NCBI GenBank assembly: GCA_964636355.1
Contig: CAZWRG010000004.1
Span: 1 to 60,368, forward strand
Direction: 5' to 3'
Length of the DNA: 60,368 nt
DNA from: an uncultured Candidatus Saccharibacteria bacterium
GTDB taxonomy: Bacteria > Patescibacteriota > Saccharimonadia > Saccharimonadales > JAGQNK01
Shown here piece by piece: positions 53 through 53,265 of this stretch; position 1 is the first letter of the stretch, and the number at the start of each line of letters is the position of its first letter. Below the pieces are notes generated by a model. It did no database searches. It was not told the origin of the DNA and saw only the letters and a program-made list of their open reading frames with translations. The translations under genes and the position numbers were made by a program.

Positions 53-124
53 ATAAATTATATGGGTTTCATCGGTTATCTTATTTTTAATGTTCGCTCT
101 TGTCGTCTTGTTTAGCCGATTAGA

Positions 125-178
125 GCAGGTGCTCGATTGTTATTTTGTAGCTTTGCTACGGGGCTGAGCTATGGGCCC
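125..178 (-). pseudogene. tRNA-Lys 5'-half relic (acceptor 5' strand, D-arm with about 25-nt insertion, anticodon-stem 5' strand; no anticodon loop or T-arm)
   Basis: Minus strand GGGCCCATAGCTCAGCCCC[gtagcaaagctacaaaataacaatc]GAGCACCTGC matches the intact tRNA at 52..1, then diverges. Confidence 0.6.
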
Positions 179-324
179 TCGTCAGCGTGTAACGCTTTGG
201 TAACTAATTTGCTGGCAAAACAAGTTTGCCCAGCAAAAGCAGTTACCAAACCTAGCCGCTTCCTCTCAAAATCCCAAACAGCAGCGAGCTGCTTGGTTTG
301 GTATTTTGGATCATAACTGCAGGG
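179..324 (-). ncRNA. Structured tRNA-leader element, copy A (hairpin 1, AGGA-rich linker, long hairpin 2, ACACGCUGACGA tail)
   Basis: Alignable with the copies at 40320-40470(-) and 53060-53188(+). The stems covary and the apical GCAAACUUGUUUUG is conserved. It abuts the tRNA relic. Confidence 0.5.
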
Positions 325-9331: not shown

Positions 9332-10972
9332 ATGTTCAAAGGGTGGGTTAGATTATTTTCAATTGTTAGTGTGTTTTTGCTGGTGTGTAGTCTTTTTATT
9401 CCGGTCCGGGTCTGGGCAGAAGATGAGACCAGCACTAGCAAAATTTTAATTAGCTCAGTAAAAACCGATGGCGGTTCGGGTAGTGAGTTTGTCGAGCTGT
9501 ATAACCCGGGCGATTCATTAATTGATCTGTCTGGCTGGAAATTAGAGTACATCCAAGCATCCTTGGGCTTAACAGAAGATGTTTGTTCGTCGACTACTTG
9601 GTCTAGCGAGCAGCAGATATCAAAATATATTTCTTTAGATTTAGCTGGCCAGAGCATCGCTCCGCTGACTCGTTTGAAATTATTTTTATCGAGCATGAAT
9701 GATGACGCCGCTGGTGCAGTTAGATTATCGCAGTTCAAAAACCAGACTCAGCCAAATCCGGAGCTTATAATTCATGATCTTGTGGGCTGGGGAAGTGACG
9801 CTTTGCCAGCGCCATGTTCAGAACAGCAAGCGGCCAATATACCCAAAGACGCTCAAAAGCTTGAGCGCTGCGTCGATAATCATGGTTACTTTATGGATAC
9901 TAATAACAACCTTCAGGATTTTAAGATTTTAAGTGACGCAGAGGCGCTACCACAGCTTTGTGACGCCGGCCAAGATCCGGCTAATGATCCGGATTGTAGT
10001 GGCGTGGTGGTCAGCGAAGTATTGCCTAATCCTAAAGGCGATGATCAAAATAGCGAGTTTATAGAAATCTTTAATCCCACCGCAGAAACTATCAATCTTA
10101 GCGGCTGCAAATTACAAGTGGAAGGCAGTGCTAACATTTATGAATTTGAGAAGGATGAGGTTATTGAGAGCGGTCAGTTTATAGCGATTTACAGTGAAGT
10201 TTCTGGTCTGAGGCTGCCCAACGCGAGCGGCGGCACAGTGCTGATAATTAGCGGTGGTGTGGAGTATCCGTTTAGTTATCAGCCAGGATTAAAAGATGAT
10301 ATTTCGTGGGCGATGATTGATGAAAAGTGGCAAATGACTGATCGTCCTACGCCGGGATCAACTAACCTTCCGATGAGCCAAAAGCCAAGTCCGAACTCTA
10401 ATAATTCTTCTGGCTTAAAGCCATGCGCCGTCGGGAAATATCGAAACCCTGAGACCAATCGCTGCCGGAATATTGAAACAACTTCTGACTCACTAAAACC
10501 GTGCGCCGAAGGCAAGGAGCGCAATCCGGCGACTAATCGTTGCAGAAGCATTGTTGCTAGTTTATCTTCGTTGGTTCCGTGTCGTGATGGTCAGGTTCGT
10601 AACCCCGAGACCAATCGTTGCAGAAGTGTTTTGTCATCAAGTTCTTCGTTAGTTCCCTGTAAACCAGGTCAGCAGCGCAATCCAGAGACCAATCGTTGTC
10701 GCAAGATTGACTCGGATGGCAGCTCATTAAAACCATGCGCCGAAGGCCAAGAACGAAACCCCGAAACCAATCGTTGCCGTAAAGTTAAGGCTCAGCTAGC
10801 TAGCGCTGATTTTGGGTCAGAGTCAAACAACTCAAGCCCGATTAATTACGGAATATTAGCCGCGGTCGGATCGTTGGTCGCTGGTTATGGAGTTTATGAA
10901 TACAGAAATGATTTTCGAAACAAATGGCGACAAATTCGCAATCACAAATTTTTTAATAGGAGTGGGAGATGA
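9332..10972 (+). CDS. Surface protein with two lamin-tail domains (LTD), five Cys-pair repeats and a C-terminal TM anchor
   Basis: Signal peptide present. LTD signatures are ILISSVKTDGGSGSEFVELYNPGDSLIDLSGWKL and VVSEVLPNPKGDDQNSEFIEIFNPTAETINLSGCKL. The unit L(K/V)PC..G..RNP(E/A)TNRCR occurs five times. Confidence 0.7.
   Translation: MFKGWVRLFSIVSVFLLVCSLFIPVRVWAEDETSTSKILISSVKTDGGSGSEFVELYNPGDSLIDLSGWKLEYIQASLGLTEDVCSSTTWSSEQQISKYISLDLAGQSIAPLTRLKLFLSSMNDDAAGAVRLSQFKNQTQPNPELIIHDLVGWGSDALPAPCSEQQAANIPKDAQKLERCVDNHGYFMDTNNNLQDFKILSDAEALPQLCDAGQDPANDPDCSGVVVSEVLPNPKGDDQNSEFIEIFNPTAETINLSGCKLQVEGSANIYEFEKDEVIESGQFIAIYSEVSGLRLPNASGGTVLIISGGVEYPFSYQPGLKDDISWAMIDEKWQMTDRPTPGSTNLPMSQKPSPNSNNSSGLKPCAVGKYRNPETNRCRNIETTSDSLKPCAEGKERNPATNRCRSIVASLSSLVPCRDGQVRNPETNRCRSVLSSSSSLVPCKPGQQRNPETNRCRKIDSDGSSLKPCAEGQERNPETNRCRKVKAQLASADFGSESNNSSPINYGILAAVGSLVAGYGVYEYRNDFRNKWRQIRNHKFFNRSGR
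10415..10786 (+). repeat. Five in-frame coding repeats of about 75-80 nt (LKPCAxGxxRNPETNRCRxI plus a Ser-rich linker)
   Basis: Read directly. The core ...AACCC(T/C/A)GAGACCAATCG(C/T)TG(C/T)... recurs at regular spacing inside CDS 9332..10972. Confidence 0.9.
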
Positions 10973-39263: not shown

Positions 39264-40202
39264 ATGAGGGCAGCGCAAATTAGTGAATACGGTGACGCTT
39301 CAGTCATCAAAATTAATGAGATTGAAAAGCCGCAGGCTGGCGATGGTCAGGTGGTGGTTGAGGTTTATGCCAGTAGTATAAATCCATTTGATACCACAAT
39401 TCGGGCGGGTTATATGAAAGACATGATTCCCCTTGAGTTTCCGGTCACTTTAGGTGGCGATATTGCTGGCGTGGTCAGCGAAATTGGCCCGGGTGTTGAG
39501 GGATTTAATGCTGGCGATAAGGTCTATGGCCAAGCAAATGCGGTAGCAGGTAACAGCGGAGCTTTCGCTGAATTTGCCGCCACTTCCGCTGGGCAGCTGG
39601 CGAAAATGCCGGAAAGTTTAGATTTTACCGAAGCGGCCTCGCTTCCGCTGGTAGCGGTCAGTGCTTGGCAAGGAATTGTTCAGCATATTGATCTGCAGTC
39701 TGGCCAGAAAATATTCATTCATGGCGGCGCAGGTGGAATTGGCACGATAGCTATTCAGATTGCCAAAAACCTCGGCGCTTATGTTGCTACCACAGCCACT
39801 GGCGAAGGTATAGATTACGTAAAACAGCTCGGCGCGGATGAAGTTATTGATTATAAGGTCCAGAATTTTGCAGAAGTGCTCCGCGACTACAACGCTGTGT
39901 TTGAACTGGCTGGCGGTTCGGAATTTGATAAAACCCTGACAGTCTTAAAAACTGGCGGAATTGGTGTGTCGATGATTGCGCAGGCCGACGAAGCCAGAGT
40001 AGCTGAACTAGGTGTTAGGGCAATATCTCAAAGTACAAAAGTAACTACCGAGGCATTAGAGCAGGTGTCAAAATTAGTCGAAGCCGGGGTTATAAAACCG
40101 CAGGTGGATAAAACCTTTAATTTAGACCAAGCTCAGGAAGCTTTTAAGGCCCGCGAATCTGGCATGGTTCAGGGTAAAATAGTCCTAAAAATTAAAGAAT
40201 AA
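39264..40202 (+). CDS. NADPH:quinone oxidoreductase / zinc-type alcohol dehydrogenase-like (MDR superfamily)
   Basis: GDGQVVVEVYASSINPFD...GGDIAGVV...IHGGAGGIGT...GKIVL. Confidence 0.85.
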   Translation: MRAAQISEYGDASVIKINEIEKPQAGDGQVVVEVYASSINPFDTTIRAGYMKDMIPLEFPVTLGGDIAGVVSEIGPGVEGFNAGDKVYGQANAVAGNSGAFAEFAATSAGQLAKMPESLDFTEAASLPLVAVSAWQGIVQHIDLQSGQKIFIHGGAGGIGTIAIQIAKNLGAYVATTATGEGIDYVKQLGADEVIDYKVQNFAEVLRDYNAVFELAGGSEFDKTLTVLKTGGIGVSMIAQADEARVAELGVRAISQSTKVTTEALEQVSKLVEAGVIKPQVDKTFNLDQAQEAFKARESGMVQGKIVLKIKE

Positions 40203-40241
40203 ATAAAAATGACCTCCTAAAAAGGTCACCTATAAATATTC

Positions 40242-40319
40242 TGGGGCGAGTGATGGGATTCAAACCCACGATCTTCTGTGCCACAAACAGACGCTTTAAT
40301 CCGCTAAGCTACACCCGCC
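40242..40319 (-). tRNA. tRNA-His(GUG) with encoded G-1 and CCA
   Basis: Minus strand G-GCGGGTG...anticodon loop TT-GTG-GC...CACTCGC-C-CCA. The T-loop TTTGAAT has U at position 56. Confidence 0.93.
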
Positions 40320-40470
40320 GCGTCACCGTGTAATGGTTAGGTGGCTATTTCGCCAACAAAACGAGTTTGCTTGGCAAAATTACCCACCTATCCAAGCCGG
40401 CTCCTTTTCCGATGTCCAAACAGCAACAAGTTGCTTGGTTTGGTCACCGGCGTTCGGCTACTGAACAGGG
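40320..40470 (-). ncRNA. Structured tRNA-leader element, copy B
   Basis: Same architecture as copies A and C. Hairpin 1 is CCAAACCAAGCAA-CUUG-UUGCUGUUUGG. Hairpin 2 has apex GCAAACUCGUUUUG. The tail ACACGGUGACG abuts tRNA-His. Confidence 0.55.
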
Positions 40471-40473
40471 GTG

Positions 40474-40502
40474 ATTATAGTACAAATTGAGAAAAATTCC
40501 AA
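40474..40502 (-). promoter_or_regulatory. Sigma-70-type promoter driving leader B and tRNA-His
   Basis: Minus strand reads TTGGAA, a 17-nt spacer, TATAAT, then the GC-rich discriminator CACCCCTGTTCAG. Confidence 0.65.
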
Positions 40503-40508
40503 CCATAA

Positions 40509-41003
40509 TTACTCTACTACCAAAAAACCTTCTGACTCATCTCTGTAGTGATGGACTAAATAGTGGCAGTTGTGACATAGCCATATCAGATTAGCGAGGT
40601 CGTTATTTGATCGGTCCTTGTCTTTGTGGTGAACCGCCAGAATTCGCTGGTCACTTGTTAGGCATTTAGAGCAGTTTCGTGCAAGTTTGGAGCGCAATAG
40701 TCGCTGCCGATAGGATGATTCGCCATTTACCCAATTTTTATGGTTTTTGCCAGTGTAAAGCTCGGAGTTCCGCCATTTTGTTTGGCAAGATTTACCGCAA
40801 AAGAATAATTTACTCTTAGATCTTTGCTGGTCAGTCAGCGTTTTGTAAATTCTCTTACCGCACACATGACAAGAACAATACATACCTGTTCGTTGGCCAT
40901 GATGCTGGCATGCCTTAGAGCAAAACCTCCCCCAGCCTTTTAATAAACGGTTAGGTTTGACGTAGAAACTTTTTGAGCATGTTTCACACGATACGTGGGG
41001 CAT
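40509..41003 (-). CDS. HNH endonuclease with duplicated CxxC...CxxxC zinc-ribbon modules
   Basis: AVHHKDKDRSNNDLANLIWLCHNCHYLVHH. Two modules match C..C.K..Y...FC.K.CQ. Confidence 0.8.
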   Translation of the reverse strand: MPHVSCETCSKSFYVKPNRLLKGWGRFCSKACQHHGQRTGMYCSCHVCGKRIYKTLTDQQRSKSKLFFCGKSCQTKWRNSELYTGKNHKNWVNGESSYRQRLLRSKLARNCSKCLTSDQRILAVHHKDKDRSNNDLANLIWLCHNCHYLVHHYRDESEGFLVVE

Positions 41004-41203
41004 ACCACAAGTTTATGTTATCTATACTAACAGGGTCAAGCAGTAGTTTCTGGGCAAGCAAAATTGGTTAAGTGCTTTATACGCTTAATACAAGCTCGGC
41101 GCCGATAACCAGGGCGCCTAAAAAGGCTGCGCCTTTCCAAAAATTTCTGCGGGCTTCTTTTTCCTGTGGTGACTTCTCTGACATAATTCTATTTTATCAA
41201 AAA

Positions 41204-41695
41204 CTAAACCTTAAAATCGATGGTTTTAGTGATTTTGCGCATAGTGCCATCACCACTGGGGAACATGTCTATTAGGGATACAGAGTTTATGATTCGCTTT
41301 TCACCTGGTTTTAATGAGCCGGATTTTTGCTTTGTGCTATGGGGCTCATAGCCTTTTCCTTGATACTCGGGTGAGTTATAAACTACACCGATTTCCTTTA
41401 GCCAATTATAAATTTTGGAATAAAATTCCATTAGTTCAGGCGATTTTTTGACTCTCATCACAGGAATATTATGATCTGGCCCAAACAAAGCCTCTTCTTT
41501 AGCTTCGACTTCAAATGCTGGCGTGCTGGCGGCTACCTGGGAAAGCTCCTCGGCAAGTTCCTGGCCATTTTTTGAAGTAGCAAAAACTCCGCCATAAGTT
41601 ATGTGCAAAGGGGAGTTCGCAAAATGAAACTCGTAACCTTCCGGTTTGGGCTCTAAGAGCGAGCAGATTGTCCACTTTTGCGTAAATTTTTCCAT
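41204..41695 (-). CDS. 2H-phosphoesterase superfamily protein (LigT/2'-5' RNA ligase-like)
   Basis: Two H-x-(T/S) motifs at the expected spacing: PLHITYGG and YEPHSTKQ. Confidence 0.5.
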   Translation of the reverse strand: MEKFTQKWTICSLLEPKPEGYEFHFANSPLHITYGGVFATSKNGQELAEELSQVAASTPAFEVEAKEEALFGPDHNIPVMRVKKSPELMEFYSKIYNWLKEIGVVYNSPEYQGKGYEPHSTKQKSGSLKPGEKRIINSVSLIDMFPSGDGTMRKITKTIDFKV

Positions 41696-41722
41696 AATTT
41701 TAGTTTATCAAACCCAGCAGTA

Positions 41723-42313
41723 TTATTTAGCTCGCTGATTTAGCCAATCTGGAATGTTTGAAAATCTAATCTCTGGCCAACTGCTTATCTCTTCTTCGGT
41801 GACATCATAAATTGCCTGGTAGGCTGGCTCAACGCTTCCATGCAGCGCGCGAGAATAATCCAGCTCTAGCTTCGCTGCTACTTCACGCAGAGTTTTTTCG
41901 TTTGGAGCTTCAATCTCCACAAAACCCGGAATCCACGGCCAAGTATCCAGCTCGATTTCCACTTTTCCCAGGCGCCAACTCTCACGTTTGGTTTCCTGGC
42001 AGGACTTAACCCTAAGACCTATTGATTTCAGAAAACTACAAGTCGTATCAAAATCATCAACCGCCACAGTTACTTCTTTGGTTCCTTGCAGGCTGCGATC
42101 GTCAAGTTGCTTGTAGCTAAGAGTTACTTTATCTCCTTCATTGCGGACTCTGACCCAGCCGCCTATTTTTTGGAGTCGGCCGTCTTCATAGTCAAAAACC
42201 GCGCGGGTCATCAAGCGTTCTGGTGTGATAAGTGTTGCTCCGCAGACTTTAAGCTTTTGACGTATATCATCGTGACTTACATCAAGCCACTTAGCCTCAA
42301 TCTCTGTTTTCAT
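41723..42313 (-). CDS. CYTH-domain protein (triphosphate tunnel metalloenzyme / class IV adenylate cyclase-like)
   Basis: N-terminal EIEAKW (ExExK) motif, the alternating charged beta-strand pattern of the tunnel fold, and ...VEIELDTWPWIPGFVEIE. Confidence 0.75.
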   Translation of the reverse strand: MKTEIEAKWLDVSHDDIRQKLKVCGATLITPERLMTRAVFDYEDGRLQKIGGWVRVRNEGDKVTLSYKQLDDRSLQGTKEVTVAVDDFDTTCSFLKSIGLRVKSCQETKRESWRLGKVEIELDTWPWIPGFVEIEAPNEKTLREVAAKLELDYSRALHGSVEPAYQAIYDVTEEEISSWPEIRFSNIPDWLNQRAK

Positions 42314-48786: not shown

Positions 48787-48863
48787 GCACCGGTAGCTCA
48801 GCGGATTAGAGCATCTGTCTTCGGAACAGAGGGTCGGGGGTTCGAATCCCTCCCGGTGTACCA
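48787..48863 (+). tRNA. tRNA-Arg(UCG), CCA encoded
   Basis: GCACCGG TA GCTC AGCGGATTA GAGC ... anticodon loop CT-TCG-GA ... TTCGAAT ... CCGGTGT A CCA. Confidence 0.93.
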
Positions 48864-48915
48864 GAGTGAAATTACAGAAAGAGATTGGAAGCTATTTCAA
48901 TCTCTTTTTTGTTGG
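48856..48915 (+). repeat. Direct repeat, left copy (last 8 nt of tRNA-Arg plus its terminator)
   Basis: GTGTACCAGAGTGAAATTAC... has its first 20 nt identical, and the rest about 80% identical, to 49715-49775. It contains the terminator GAGATTGGAAGCTATTTCAATCTC-TTTTTT. Confidence 0.85.
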
Positions 48916-49692: not shown

Positions 49693-49775
49693 AGTTTGAA
49701 CTTCCTTTACTGCCGTGTACCAGAGTGAAATTACGGATAGAGATTGAAGCCCATTTCAATTTCTTTTTTATTTGG
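49693..49775 (+). repeat. Direct repeat, right copy: degenerate tRNA-Arg 3' end (T-arm/acceptor relic) plus a terminator copy
   Basis: GTTTGAACTTCCTTTACTGCCGTGTACCA compares with tRNA GTTCGAATCCCTCCCGGTGTACCA. GAGTGAAATTACGGATAGAGATTGAAGCCCATTTCAATTTCTTTTTT follows. Confidence 0.8.
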
Positions 49776-51273: not shown

Positions 51274-53028
51274 ATGCAGGAAAATATAAAACGCTTTGCT
51301 TCAATTGAGGCCACTGAGGCTGCGCTCCGAGCTTATGTACCGGTTGTTAAGGAAATAACCGGCAAAGACATTACTTTGCAGCGCATGGAGCCATTAATGG
51401 CAGCGCTTGGTAACCCACAGAATAAACTGAAAATTGTTCACATAGCCGGCACATCCGGTAAAACATCAACTGCATATTATATTGCAAAAATGTTGCAAAG
51501 ACAGGGAAGAAAAGTTGGCTTAACTGTTTCACCGCACATCGATAGTGTAACCGAAAGAGTGCAAATAAACTCTTCTCCAATCAGCGAATGGGAGTTCACA
51601 GATGCGCTTGGTGAATTCTGGGATATTATTGAATCGGTTAGTCCGCAGCCATCGTATTTTGAACTGCTGGCGGCTTTTGCATATTGGTATTTTGAAAAAG
51701 TTGGTGTTGATATTGCAGTTGTAGAAACTGGTTTTGGGGGACTGCACGATGGTACAAATGTAGCCAATAATTCTAACAAAATCTGCGCTATTACAGATAT
51801 CGGGCTCGATCATACGCAGATATTAGGCGAGAGTTTAGATTTAATTGCTGCTCAAAAAGTCGGGATTGTTCATCCCAAAAATACGCTAATTACTTATCAC
51901 CAGTCAGAACAAATTGATGAAATATTTCGTGGACATGCAATGGCAGTTTCAGCGGAGATTTTATTTCAAAATCAAGCTGATTTATTTAGTCGCTACACCA
52001 ACTCTGGGCTTCTGGAGCTCCCAGCGTATCAACAGAGGAATTGGCTACTTGCCAGAATGGTTTGCGAAACCGTTGCAAAAATACACAATCTTGACTTAGA
52101 TGATCAATCAATTCAGGCAAGTTTATCGGTTGATATTCCTGGCCGTATGGACACGCAGACTGTAGACGACCAGATAATTATTATGGACGGGGCGCATAAC
52201 GAACAGAAGAATAATGCTTTTATAGATAGCTTTCAGCAGAAATTCCCTGATCAAAAAGTTCCGCTATTGGTTAGTTTTAAGCAAGATAAAGAGTATCTAA
52301 AGATTCTTCCTTTGCTACGTCAGATTTCAGATGAAATTATCGTGACTTCTTTTGAGGCATTGCAGGATTTACCGGTTAAATCTCAGGATGTGTCGACTTT
52401 AGCTAAAGCGGCTAGGGAGTCCGGCTTTAAATCGGTAATTGAAATAGCGGATAGTCGAGCCGCGTACCAAAAACTTCTTGAAATATCTAACGGCTTAGCG
52501 GTGATTACCGGGTCATTTTACTTGATAGCTCTAGCTAGGTTATACGCACGGCAAAAAGTTGTGCGGGCTATTGCGGCAATTGATGATAATTATGGACTGG
52601 CCGATGACCACGGTATTCCTTGGAGTTTGCCTCTTGATCGCCGCTATACTAAAGAAAAAACCATGGGCGGCGCGCTGCTTATGGGATATAACACCTACAT
52701 AGAATTTGAATCTCCGCTGACAGGGCGGAGAAATTTAGTACTGGTTGATGAAACGCAAGTTTTGCGGGATGGTTTCGAGCCGATTAGAAGTGTAGAGGAA
52801 TTTTTTAAAGAACCGCCGGCCAACCTATGGCTTTTTGGCGGTGCTGGGGCGTTTAGGGAAACACTCGAATATGCTGATGAGCTTTATTTGACGAGAGTTA
52901 AGGGTGATTTTGATTGCACTAAGTTTTTCCCGCCGTTTGAAAAAGATTTTGCATTAGCGTCCAGTAGCAAATCATACACCGAAAACGGAATCAGATTTCA
53001 ATTTGAAATCTGGCGCAGAAAACATTGA
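51274..53028 (+). CDS. folC: Folylpolyglutamate/dihydrofolate synthase (FolC) fused to dihydrofolate reductase (DHFR)
   Basis: Mur-ligase P-loop HIAGTSGKTST. From about aa 445 it reads VVRAIAAIDDNYGLADDHGIPWSLPLDRRYTKEKT...LMGYNTY...LFGGAGAF...LYLTRVKGDFDCTKFFP. TGGTATAAT lies 9 nt before ATG 51274. Confidence 0.85.
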   Translation: MQENIKRFASIEATEAALRAYVPVVKEITGKDITLQRMEPLMAALGNPQNKLKIVHIAGTSGKTSTAYYIAKMLQRQGRKVGLTVSPHIDSVTERVQINSSPISEWEFTDALGEFWDIIESVSPQPSYFELLAAFAYWYFEKVGVDIAVVETGFGGLHDGTNVANNSNKICAITDIGLDHTQILGESLDLIAAQKVGIVHPKNTLITYHQSEQIDEIFRGHAMAVSAEILFQNQADLFSRYTNSGLLELPAYQQRNWLLARMVCETVAKIHNLDLDDQSIQASLSVDIPGRMDTQTVDDQIIIMDGAHNEQKNNAFIDSFQQKFPDQKVPLLVSFKQDKEYLKILPLLRQISDEIIVTSFEALQDLPVKSQDVSTLAKAARESGFKSVIEIADSRAAYQKLLEISNGLAVITGSFYLIALARLYARQKVVRAIAAIDDNYGLADDHGIPWSLPLDRRYTKEKTMGGALLMGYNTYIEFESPLTGRRNLVLVDETQVLRDGFEPIRSVEEFFKEPPANLWLFGGAGAFRETLEYADELYLTRVKGDFDCTKFFPPFEKDFALASSSKSYTENGIRFQFEIWRRKH

Positions 53029-53053
53029 AAAAAACAACAAGTTCTGCTAAAAT
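53025..53053 (+). promoter_or_regulatory. Sigma-70-type promoter driving leader C and tRNA-Lys(CUU)
   Basis: TTGAAA, a 17-nt spacer, TAAAAT, then the discriminator CCCCCTGTTGCAG. The -35 box overlaps the folC stop. Confidence 0.65.
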
Positions 53054-53059
53054 CCCCCT

Positions 53060-53188
53060 GTTGCAGCCAACCAAATTTGCGAGAGGATTCGCAAATTTGA
53101 GAGGAGATGGCTTGTCTTGGGTAGATAGTTCTGCCGAGCAAACTTGTTTTGTCGGCAGAACAGCTACCCAAACATCACACATCGACGA
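53060..53188 (+). ncRNA. Structured tRNA-leader element, copy C
   Basis: Hairpin 1 is CAAATTTGCGA-GAGGAT-TCGCAAATTTG. The linker is AGAGGAGATGGCT. Hairpin 2 is TTGGGTAG..TCTGCCGA-GCAAACTTGTTTTG-TCGGCAGA..CTACCCAA. The tail ACACATCGACGA abuts the tRNA. Confidence 0.6.
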
Positions 53189-53265
53189 GGGTCATTAGCT
53201 CAGCTGGTTAGAGCACCTGCCTCTTAAGCAGGGTGTCCTGGGTTCGAGCCCCAGATGACCCTCCA
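53189..53265 (+). tRNA. tRNA-Lys(CUU), CCA encoded
   Basis: GGGTCAT/ATGACCC acceptor, anticodon loop CT-CTT-AA, T-loop TTCGAGC. Confidence 0.95.

Follow-up and report, generated by a model that had tools for sequence, protein, structure and literature searches.

The DNA analysed here, referred to below as the window, is a stretch of 60,368 nucleotides from an uncultured Candidatus Saccharibacteria bacterium (contig CAZWRG010000004.1 of assembly GCA_964636355.1). The genome (termed G000) comprises 853 kb in 21 contigs and is 99.55% complete by marker genes. On the minus strand of the window, the tRNA-His gene is preceded by a promoter and by a two-hairpin element that extends to the tRNA itself. 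This element is termed the leader, and the leader at tRNA-His is copy B. The features of the locus and of two sister copies in the window are as follows.

40497–40502, minus strand: −35-like hexamer TTGGAA (consensus scan and sequence)
40474–40479, minus strand: −10 hexamer TATAAT, with a 17-nt spacer to the −35 (consensus scan)
40464–40473, minus strand: CACCCCTGTT, a discriminator/start region common to tRNA promoters of this genome (pattern search)
40409–40450, minus strand: hairpin P1, type I, with a CUUG tetraloop, a CA bulge and a 6-bp basal extension CCGGUG/CAUCGG (fold)
40401–40408, minus strand: purine linker AAAAGGAG, in which A5, G6, G7 and A8 are conserved at 95–96%
40320–40404, minus strand: P2 domain, 85 nt (covariance models and covariation)
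40357–40370, minus strand: apex GCAAACUCGUUUUG, a CUUG-type loop (CUCG in copy B) closed by three invariant A-U pairs (conservation and loop covariation)
40320–40324, minus strand: 3′ tail GACGC (consensus G-A-C-G-N, first four positions conserved at 92–98%)
40242–40319, minus strand: tRNA-His(GUG) with encoded G-1 (40319) and encoded CCA (ARAGORN at 40318–40242; Rfam)
40207–40231, minus strand: terminator-like hairpin and T run that closes the leader-tRNA-His transcription unit (sequence scan)
53025–53188, plus strand: sister copy with promoter, type II P1 (loop GAGGAU), P2 and tail GACGA, adjoining tRNA-Lys(CUU) at 53189 (99.3 bits)
179–324, minus strand: sister copy with type I P1, adjoining a 17-nt tRNA-Lys 5′ fragment (98.3 bits)

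The promoter TTGGAA-17-TATAAT (40502->40474, minus strand), which a sequence-only reading of this DNA had assigned to copy B, is present and is the sole sigma-70-like candidate within positions 40100–40700. Transcription would start at about 40467–40465. The signature TATAAT-N2-5-CCTGTT has two matches in the window, each 5′ of a tRNA, where shuffles give 0.08; it is also found 5′ of many tRNAs genome-wide and upstream of about half of the leader copies (43 of 84). A scan of positions 40100–40700 displays no terminator between the leader and tRNA-His.

Window positions 40509–42313 of the minus strand encode an HNH_3-like nuclease (a weak match, 21.8 bits), a 2H protein (2′-5′ RNA ligase superfamily) and a CYTH protein, and these genes sit between tRNA-His and a tRNA-Arg/tRNA-Gly pair. 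The last bases of tRNA-Arg(UCG) together with its terminator hairpin (48856–48913) are repeated 859 bp downstream at 49715–49772 with 86% identity, which resembles the att-like junctions of a small insertion at the 3′ end of the tRNA. At positions 10411–10777 there are five tandem copies of a 78-nt unit, with 62–80% identity over the 55-nt block compared; this is probably a coding repeat.

The order of parts previously proposed for the element, i.e. hairpin 1, AGGAG linker, hairpin 2 and conserved apex, is found complete in the sequence. The 148-nt leader of copy B has a folding energy of −60.5 kcal/mol (z = −5.1), and 0 of 200 shuffles fold as well. The two other window copies that had been cited both exist and fold alike (z = −5.6 and −5.8). 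The P1 core of copy B is CCAAAC(CA)AGCAA-CUUG-UUGCU-GUUUGG (40443–40416, minus strand). Its P2 domain scores 98.1 bits with covariance model R1 and 92.7 bits with model R2. At the base of P2 the linker residues A-A-G-G-A (40406–40402) are opposite the 3′ tail and form a non-canonical stack, A.C, A.G, G-C, G.A, A.G. Above the stack are a 4-bp stem (40398–40401 with 40325–40328), an internal loop of GCUU (40394–40397) and AUUACA (40329–40334), a helix of about 10 bp (40383–40393 with 40335–40344), a variable internal loop, and the distal helix with the apex. The P2 stems read GGAUAGGUGGG/CCACCUAACC and UUUUGCCAAG/UUGGCGAAA.

Two of the earlier statements need revision. Hairpin 2 had been given as roughly 55 nt; the hairpin is there, but the domain (40404–40320) measures 85 nt when the outer stem of 4 bp, which covaries, and the non-canonical G.A/G-C stack are counted. 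The element had also been said to end exactly at G-1 of tRNA-His. It does adjoin G-1 (40319), but the tail reads UUACACGGUGACGC, with a single extra C (40320) after GACG. Once cut off by RNase P, the leader would end in the GACGC at 40320–40324.

At least seven leader copies are present in this genome. The further copies are 5′ of three tRNA-Met(CAU) genes, one of these a variant, and a divergent one is 5′ of tRNA-Asp. Among 61 genomes of the same order, 20 are leader-positive with 1–19 copies each and two-thirds have no detectable copy, where the 61-genome counts given here and below include an unpublished genome (G039) that is leader-negative, CsrA-negative, Y1-negative and RNase P-positive and whose sequence was not used. 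A class-wide sample of 151 genomes has eight positives, all within the order of the window and none in other orders, and one family has the leader in 0 of 24 genomes; these searches were pre-filtered so that only some candidates were scored, and as at least one divergent copy (in G005) was missed, a leader not found is not the same as a leader absent. A strict pattern of the leader matches 105 metagenome stretches, which come from samples of soil, rhizosphere, mat and groundwater. The strict pattern has 0 matches in viral contigs and a phage origin was rejected on this basis.

Searches of Rfam 15 at gathering thresholds returned tRNAs only, and at E-values up to 10 positions 40200–40560 gave two chance-level matches (12.6 and 11.6 bits). 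No published description of the element was found in Rfam 15 or by literature keyword searches. The leader is rated here as a new class of structured RNA, an undescribed folded module of about 140 nt that adjoins the predicted RNase P site of many tRNAs and of tmRNA in one bacterial order. Copy B is a member of a lineage-restricted modular family composed of P1 (of either type), a purine linker and a 90-nt P2 rod.

Six copies from this genome share one consensus fold, with double changes at 16 of its 27 pairs. When 34 copies from 20 genomes are aligned with the model, 94.8% of cells form a pair, compared with 72.9% in column shuffles and 28–45% in slid-partner controls; both partners have changed in 22 of the 27 pairs, and none of 500 shuffles attains any of the observed values, all counts being drawn from related, non-independent genomes. 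As model-based alignments lean towards the model, 30 copies were also aligned with MAFFT alone. Folded with RNAalifold, this structure-blind alignment recovers that fold, and 22 of its 28 pairs are doubly changed. The leader covariation is among the strongest obtainable for an orphan RNA. The sequence-only reading had staked its structural claim on covariation among more homologs, and with these the covariation is overwhelming. Stem mismatches are strand-biased, G.U being found 104 times and A.C 24 times, thus the hairpin is read on the transcribed strand.

The consensus starts with RRARAGGA, a 4-bp stem, the internal loop GCUU/AUYACA and a 10-bp helix, and continues with a variable internal loop, an 8-bp helix, the apex CAAA-YUYR-U-UUUG and the tail G-A-C-G-N. 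Apex positions A47–A49 and U55–U57 are conserved at 95–100%. Positions 1 and 4 of the apex loop covary (C-G in 64 copies, U-A in 16), and such pairing covariation is as in CUUG-type tetraloops. Linker position 4 covaries with position −1 (G.A 44, A.C 16, G-C 7, A-U 7), linker A5 is opposite G(−2) in 77 of 85 copies, and in one copy (L032) the entire linker/tail segment is Watson-Crick. Thus a stack R.N, A.G, G-C, G.A, A.G reaches the predicted cleavage site. When the leader is compared with a kink-turn, conserved tandem G.A pairs are found, but the 3-nt bulge is lacking since G6 is paired with C(−3). P1 displays two interchangeable types among the 85 copies: type I is CCAAACCAAGCA...UGCUGUUUGG and type II has the invariant loop GAGAGGAUUC.

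Two candidate roles for the conserved parts were rejected. GGA in the P1 loop and in the linker prompted consideration of a CsrB/RsmZ-type sponge; CsrA (PF02599) is found in 0 of 61 genomes by a search that was positive in E. coli, B. subtilis and T. maritima. A micro-ORF behind AGGAG has no in-register start codon in 31 of 85 copies, and the remaining frames are 1–72 codons long, most often three, with no conserved frame or peptide.

The position of the leader relative to the next element is highly regular. In 65 of the 85 genome copies this element is a tRNA recognised by ARAGORN. The tRNA starts at the base next to the leader end in 57 of the 65 and one base later in five, and among the latter are all four tRNA-His cases, where the leader stops before G-1. 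Bacterial RNase P cuts the tRNA-His precursor before G-1. The other 20 copies include three next to tRNAs cut by contig ends, about nine next to tRNA 5′ parts with insertions and two next to tmRNA. Position 1 of tmRNA is adjoined exactly in both of these (L030 and L049, from two genomes; Rfam 62.7 and 101 bits). In all, a tRNA or tmRNA is downstream in about 79 of 85 copies. Among metagenome matches a tRNA follows 60 of 77 that are non-coding, and it starts at +1 in 54 of the 60. These are the 3′ boundaries predicted for an RNase P-processed leader, and the exact register to the predicted cleavage site is kept in more than 110 copies from genomes and metagenomes. The common denominator of the junctions is the predicted RNase P cleavage site. 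Three observations make the link to RNase P stronger than in the sequence-only reading: tRNAs of over 20 anticodons have the leader end at +1, at tRNA-His it stops ahead of G-1, and in two genomes it adjoins tmRNA, which is also an RNase P substrate. That reading, i.e. a promoter and a two-hairpin RNA fused to tRNA-His and removed by RNase P, is supported, with transcription, cleavage and stability of the fragment as its predicted parts.

The tRNAs next to leaders are unevenly represented. tRNA-Met(CAU) is over-represented (22 of 65), and its leader is the copy most often kept in single-copy genomes. The leader is found between two tRNAs in six cases, and four genomes from three families have retained the arrangement Thr(CGU)-leader-Gly(CCC). 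A 3′ feature that would set the leader-linked tRNAs apart was rejected, as CCA is encoded by all 36 tRNA genes.

RNase P RNA is found in 59 of the 61 genomes searched, this genome included, with or without the leader. In this genome the RNA (G000:C1:10721–11240) is 520 nt long, compared with a model of 367 positions; in relatives it is 318–705 nt, and the spread in length points to variable insertions across the order. A leader that replaces RNase P or needs a special form of it was rejected, since the RNA is present in nearly all of these genomes and its length is unrelated to leader presence. A related proposal is a new class of self-cleaving ribozyme, by which the tRNA 5′ end would be freed without RNase P. 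The only point in its favor is that conserved unpaired nucleotides cluster by the junction, but the general presence of RNase P RNA and a fold of two plain hairpins, with no junction or pseudoknot, make it highly improbable. Known self-cleaving ribozymes (hammerhead, twister, HDV-like, hatchet and pistol) show no match at E-values up to 10, and the motif CUGANGA is found in one window copy only. In addition, self-cleavage would normally leave a 5′-OH on the tRNA (Ender et al. 2021, PMC7897497).

Copies in front of different tRNAs can be closely related to each other. In G001, P2 domains that are 96–98% identical are 5′ of Pro, Leu, initiator-like and two Ser tRNAs. Near-identical copies before different tRNAs (90–91% identity) are also present in G003 and G012, and in G012 the copies at tmRNA and at initiator-Met have 90% identity. 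Nearest-neighbour leader copies have the same tRNA type in only 8 of 84 cases. The block of identity has sharp ends, from a (T)GCAGCC motif about 12 nt 5′ of P1 to exactly −1. In one copy the same P2 is joined to the other P1 type, and at one locus a decayed copy is directly upstream of a fresh one. Two well-scoring leaders of G012 (L017:1483–1590 and L042:1501–1589) are inverted and directly behind a TACAAT..CCCCTGTT promoter, thus the antisense would be transcribed ahead of a tRNA. Leader copies are dispensable and recombine as modules. The recombining, dispensable, multi-copy nature of the element goes beyond the sequence-only reading.

Such properties may also be those of a hitch-hiking repeat of little or no benefit to the host, which would spread among tRNA leaders by recombination or insertion. 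It would be tolerated because RNase P removes the leader and because the autonomous fold spares tRNA folding. The patchy distribution (20 of 61 genomes, 0 of 24 in one family, copy number 0–19), the near-identical copies before different tRNAs, the sharp block ends with swapped P1 modules, the fresh copy piled on a decayed one, the two inverted copies and fast loss at an orthologous locus (see below) all fit this proposal, and Y1 transposase genes are present in 3 of 3 genomes with fresh copies. It is nevertheless improbable. The invariant loops and continuing compensatory change over many families indicate long-term selection on the RNA and more than recent copying, to which the strand bias in G.U tolerance can be added. 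Orientation and junction are too exact for a repeat to which any leader site would be equally harmless, and the Thr(CGU)-leader-Gly(CCC) arrangement has been kept across families. Further, no mobilising enzyme (Y1, RT or HNH) tracks the leader.

With respect to these enzymes, a REP/RAYT or IS200/IS605 repeat was rejected, as PF01797 (Y1) is found in 6 of 20 leader-positive genomes vs 13 of 41 leader-negative ones and is absent from leader-positive G000 and G006. Y1 enzymes may have taken part in the recent spread in G001, G003 and G012. Retroelement-borne spread was rejected because PF00078 has no match in G001, G003 and G012, the genomes with copies 90–98% identical. Elsewhere, G006 has three PF00078 matches on two contigs, and this genome has one match with an in-frame stop, a RVT_1 reverse-transcriptase match at G000:C5:41209–41817 with a single in-frame TGA. 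The HNH gene upstream of copy B was rejected as a driver, since with this query no homologue was found in the leader-rich relatives G001, G003, G006 and G012.

Other repeated sequences occur next to leaders and tRNAs. At window positions 53–178 (minus strand), a leader copy is followed by the 17-nt tRNA-Lys 5′ fragment, then about 110 nt, then an intact tRNA-Lys(UUU) at the window edge; the stretch of about 110 nt contains a degenerate D/anticodon-arm remnant and a TATAAT. The arrangement of leader and tRNA-Lys fragment is also present in another genus (L053 of G001) and thus is not a fresh accident. At L066, L077, L116, L118, L127, L133, L168 and L173 a conserved insert that starts with GUGAGAAAUGCCAGUGGCAUUUCGCAAGG..GGAA is found 3′ of leaders. 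It lies between a partial tRNA 5′ copy, interrupted within its D arm, its anticodon arm or its T stem, and the full tRNA 100–200 nt further on, and is apparently a small element whose insertion duplicates the 5′ part of the tRNA. Many leaderless tRNAs genome-wide are preceded by a look-alike of their own 5′ half and about 100 nt, e.g. at C3:40005, C14:3575, C7:28280, C6:32200, C6:6716 and C2:56059.

A second repeat family of about 75 nt consists of AAGGGAAAAGAGCAGCC, a variable hairpin and CGCGAUGAGAAAAACCG-N-AGGUUUGUCUCAU. Examples are G000:C8:33736–33810 (L001:437–511) and G000:C5:5018–5091(−). It has 2–9 copies in G000, G001, G002, G005 and G006, mostly 5′ of protein-coding genes, with one copy inside the variant tRNA-Met leader, and it has no Rfam match.

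The way the helix reaches the tRNA raises the proposal of a gate in cis, where the basal stack and stem would sequester positions −1 to −9 and RNase P would cut only with the base open. A protein or ligand at the conserved loops would set the equilibrium. The gate would regulate the supply of CAU-anticodon tRNAs (initiator, elongator and Ile2), of other tRNAs and of tmRNA, and would be the natural counterpart of a synthetic RNase P riboswitch. This is the main rival to the explanation preferred below; it is rather unlikely, but several observations are in line with it. The helix extends to −1 by weak G.A, A.G and G-C pairs, which are suited to a switchable clamp, and the register to the cleavage site is exact. 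The enrichment of tRNA-Met(CAU) and the retention of CAU copies in single-copy genomes would be expected of a gate. Ender et al. 2021 (PMC7897497) report that RNase P cleaves less when the proximal leader is masked, and argue that the bases from −1 to at least −4 ought to be unpaired. A helix up to the cleavage site should by this account slow RNase P, which fits gating at least as well as it fits a released RNA.

An orthologous tRNA-Met locus with the same promoter is of interest in this context. The leader is intact in G006. In G005 it is shortened such that the junction-proximal part is kept and the apex lost, as a gate might require. G002 has an unrelated spacer at this locus and G004 only 26 nt, and such orthologous loci without a leader count against a gate. 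A rod-like P2 with an invariant distal apex is unnecessary for mere masking, and the link to tRNA identity is loose, as indicated by the nearest-neighbour comparison. There is also no evident alternative fold or expression platform. The only candidate alternative pairing, an attenuator-like one between the 5′ strands of P1 and P2, is complementary in the consensus but is lost where P2 covaries, and was rejected.

At the level of sequence comparison, the family with its fold and covariation, the junction rule, the turnover and the spread are established. From these we infer transcription, RNase P cleavage, stability and any trans action of the leader. The explanation preferred here, which is held tentatively, is that the leader is co-transcribed with its substrate and cut by RNase P, and that the released two-hairpin RNA is the functional product. 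The module and tRNA-His would be transcribed together from a promoter of the stable-RNA type, and the module would fold independently. RNase P would cut exactly 3′ of the conserved GACGN tail to give a product of about 147 nt, with its last five nucleotides clamped to the linker by the G.A/G-C stack atop the covarying stem. P1 would cap the 5′ side, and the overall shape is expected to resist exonucleases. Selection would act on the released RNA and not on the tRNA, and the downstream tRNA or tmRNA would be a 3′-end processing signal. The released leader would probably belong, as its RNA component, to a complex by which the invariant apex, the GCUU/AUYACA loop and the GGA motifs are recognised. 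New copies would arise, and be homogenised, by recombination between leaders.

The clamp at the 3′ end (position 4/−1, A5-G(−2) and L032) and the lack of tRNA specificity support the released RNA. The common fold with its covariation and strand bias, the junctions at tRNAs and at tmRNA, the wide presence of RNase P RNA and the six copies between two tRNAs also count in its favor. Copy number is free, i.e. 0–19 per genome, and this fits a multi-copy RNA gene and not a per-gene regulator. Among the counter-points, the frequency of tRNA-Met(CAU) hints at a role tied to particular tRNAs, and the tandem of an old and a new copy together with the inverted copies resembles the behaviour of a repeat element. 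Since most relatives have no detectable copy, and orthologous copies decay or vanish within one genus, any trans function would be accessory.

Bacterial tRNA 5′ leaders are usually treated as short, unconserved and discarded. It is possible, with considerable doubt, that a new class of bacterial RNA is defined here by its physical fusion to RNase P substrates, in one of two versions: (a) the first natural leader to gate RNase P, or (b) an RNA that uses tRNAs as a 3′-end signal and colonises tRNA genes. Should either be true, tRNA 5′ leaders in reduced genomes would be a functional compartment and not a disposable spacer. A functional released RNA would mean that Saccharibacteria-like epibionts have a new, abundant small RNA whose production keeps pace with tRNA synthesis. 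With gating of RNase P, the leader would be the first natural element to control how tRNA 5′ ends mature. If selfish, it would display a new way of hiding, within a leader which the host has to cut off in any case. The covariance model built here allows annotation of the leader in metagenomes.

Several known systems can be compared with the leader, which belongs to none of them. In its working it would be closest to RNAs with a 3′ end set by RNase P, such as MALAT1 with mascRNA, and to sRNAs from tRNA precursors; in form it is like the synthetic RNase P riboswitch, and in shape like Stem I of the T-box. In the synthetic RNase P riboswitch (Ender et al. 2021, PMC7897497) a 5′-leader hairpin pairs nucleotides upstream of +1; the riboswitch was engineered around a theophylline aptamer, and that report cites no natural example. 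The leader hairpin likewise pairs the bases just 5′ of +1, but no ligand pocket or switching fold was found in it.

The T-box has in common with the leader a rod of about 90 nt with basal G.A pairs, conserved internal loops and a conserved apex, and it is also modular with a variable copy number per genome. Unlike the T-box, the leader is 5′ of tRNA or tmRNA and not of aminoacyl-tRNA synthetase or amino-acid genes, and it has no terminator/antiterminator, no T-box sequence and no Rfam match. A T-box leader was rejected on the basis of the missing Rfam match, the lack of a terminator before the tRNA and the type of downstream element. REP/BIME-RAYT repeats and IS200/IS605 ends are similar in being multi-copy structured repeats with conserved stems and near-identical copies within a genome. 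In contrast to these, the leader is fixed in orientation, joins RNase P sites exactly, accepts G.U much more readily than A.C, and is uncorrelated with Y1.

In E. coli the 3′ETS-leuZ and metZWV spacers are sRNAs derived from tRNA precursors. These resemble the leader in that by-products of tRNA operon processing act as RNAs themselves. They are single-locus, short and weakly structured and come from 3′ or internal spacers, whereas the leader is a conserved, covarying 5′ module of about 140 nt before many tRNAs and tmRNA. In vertebrates, RNase P makes the 3′ end of MALAT1 and MEN-beta at a tRNA-like structure (mascRNA in the case of MALAT1), and local structure protects this end. The leader, which is 125–150 nt long, multi-copy and bacterial, has no homology to these RNAs; its downstream element is a genuine, used tRNA or tmRNA, and its clamp is a G.A/G-C stack where that of MALAT1 is a triple helix. 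The likeness is that in both an upstream RNA would obtain an exact 3′ end from RNase P at a tRNA-shaped element, and that the new 3′ end would at once be held in structure.
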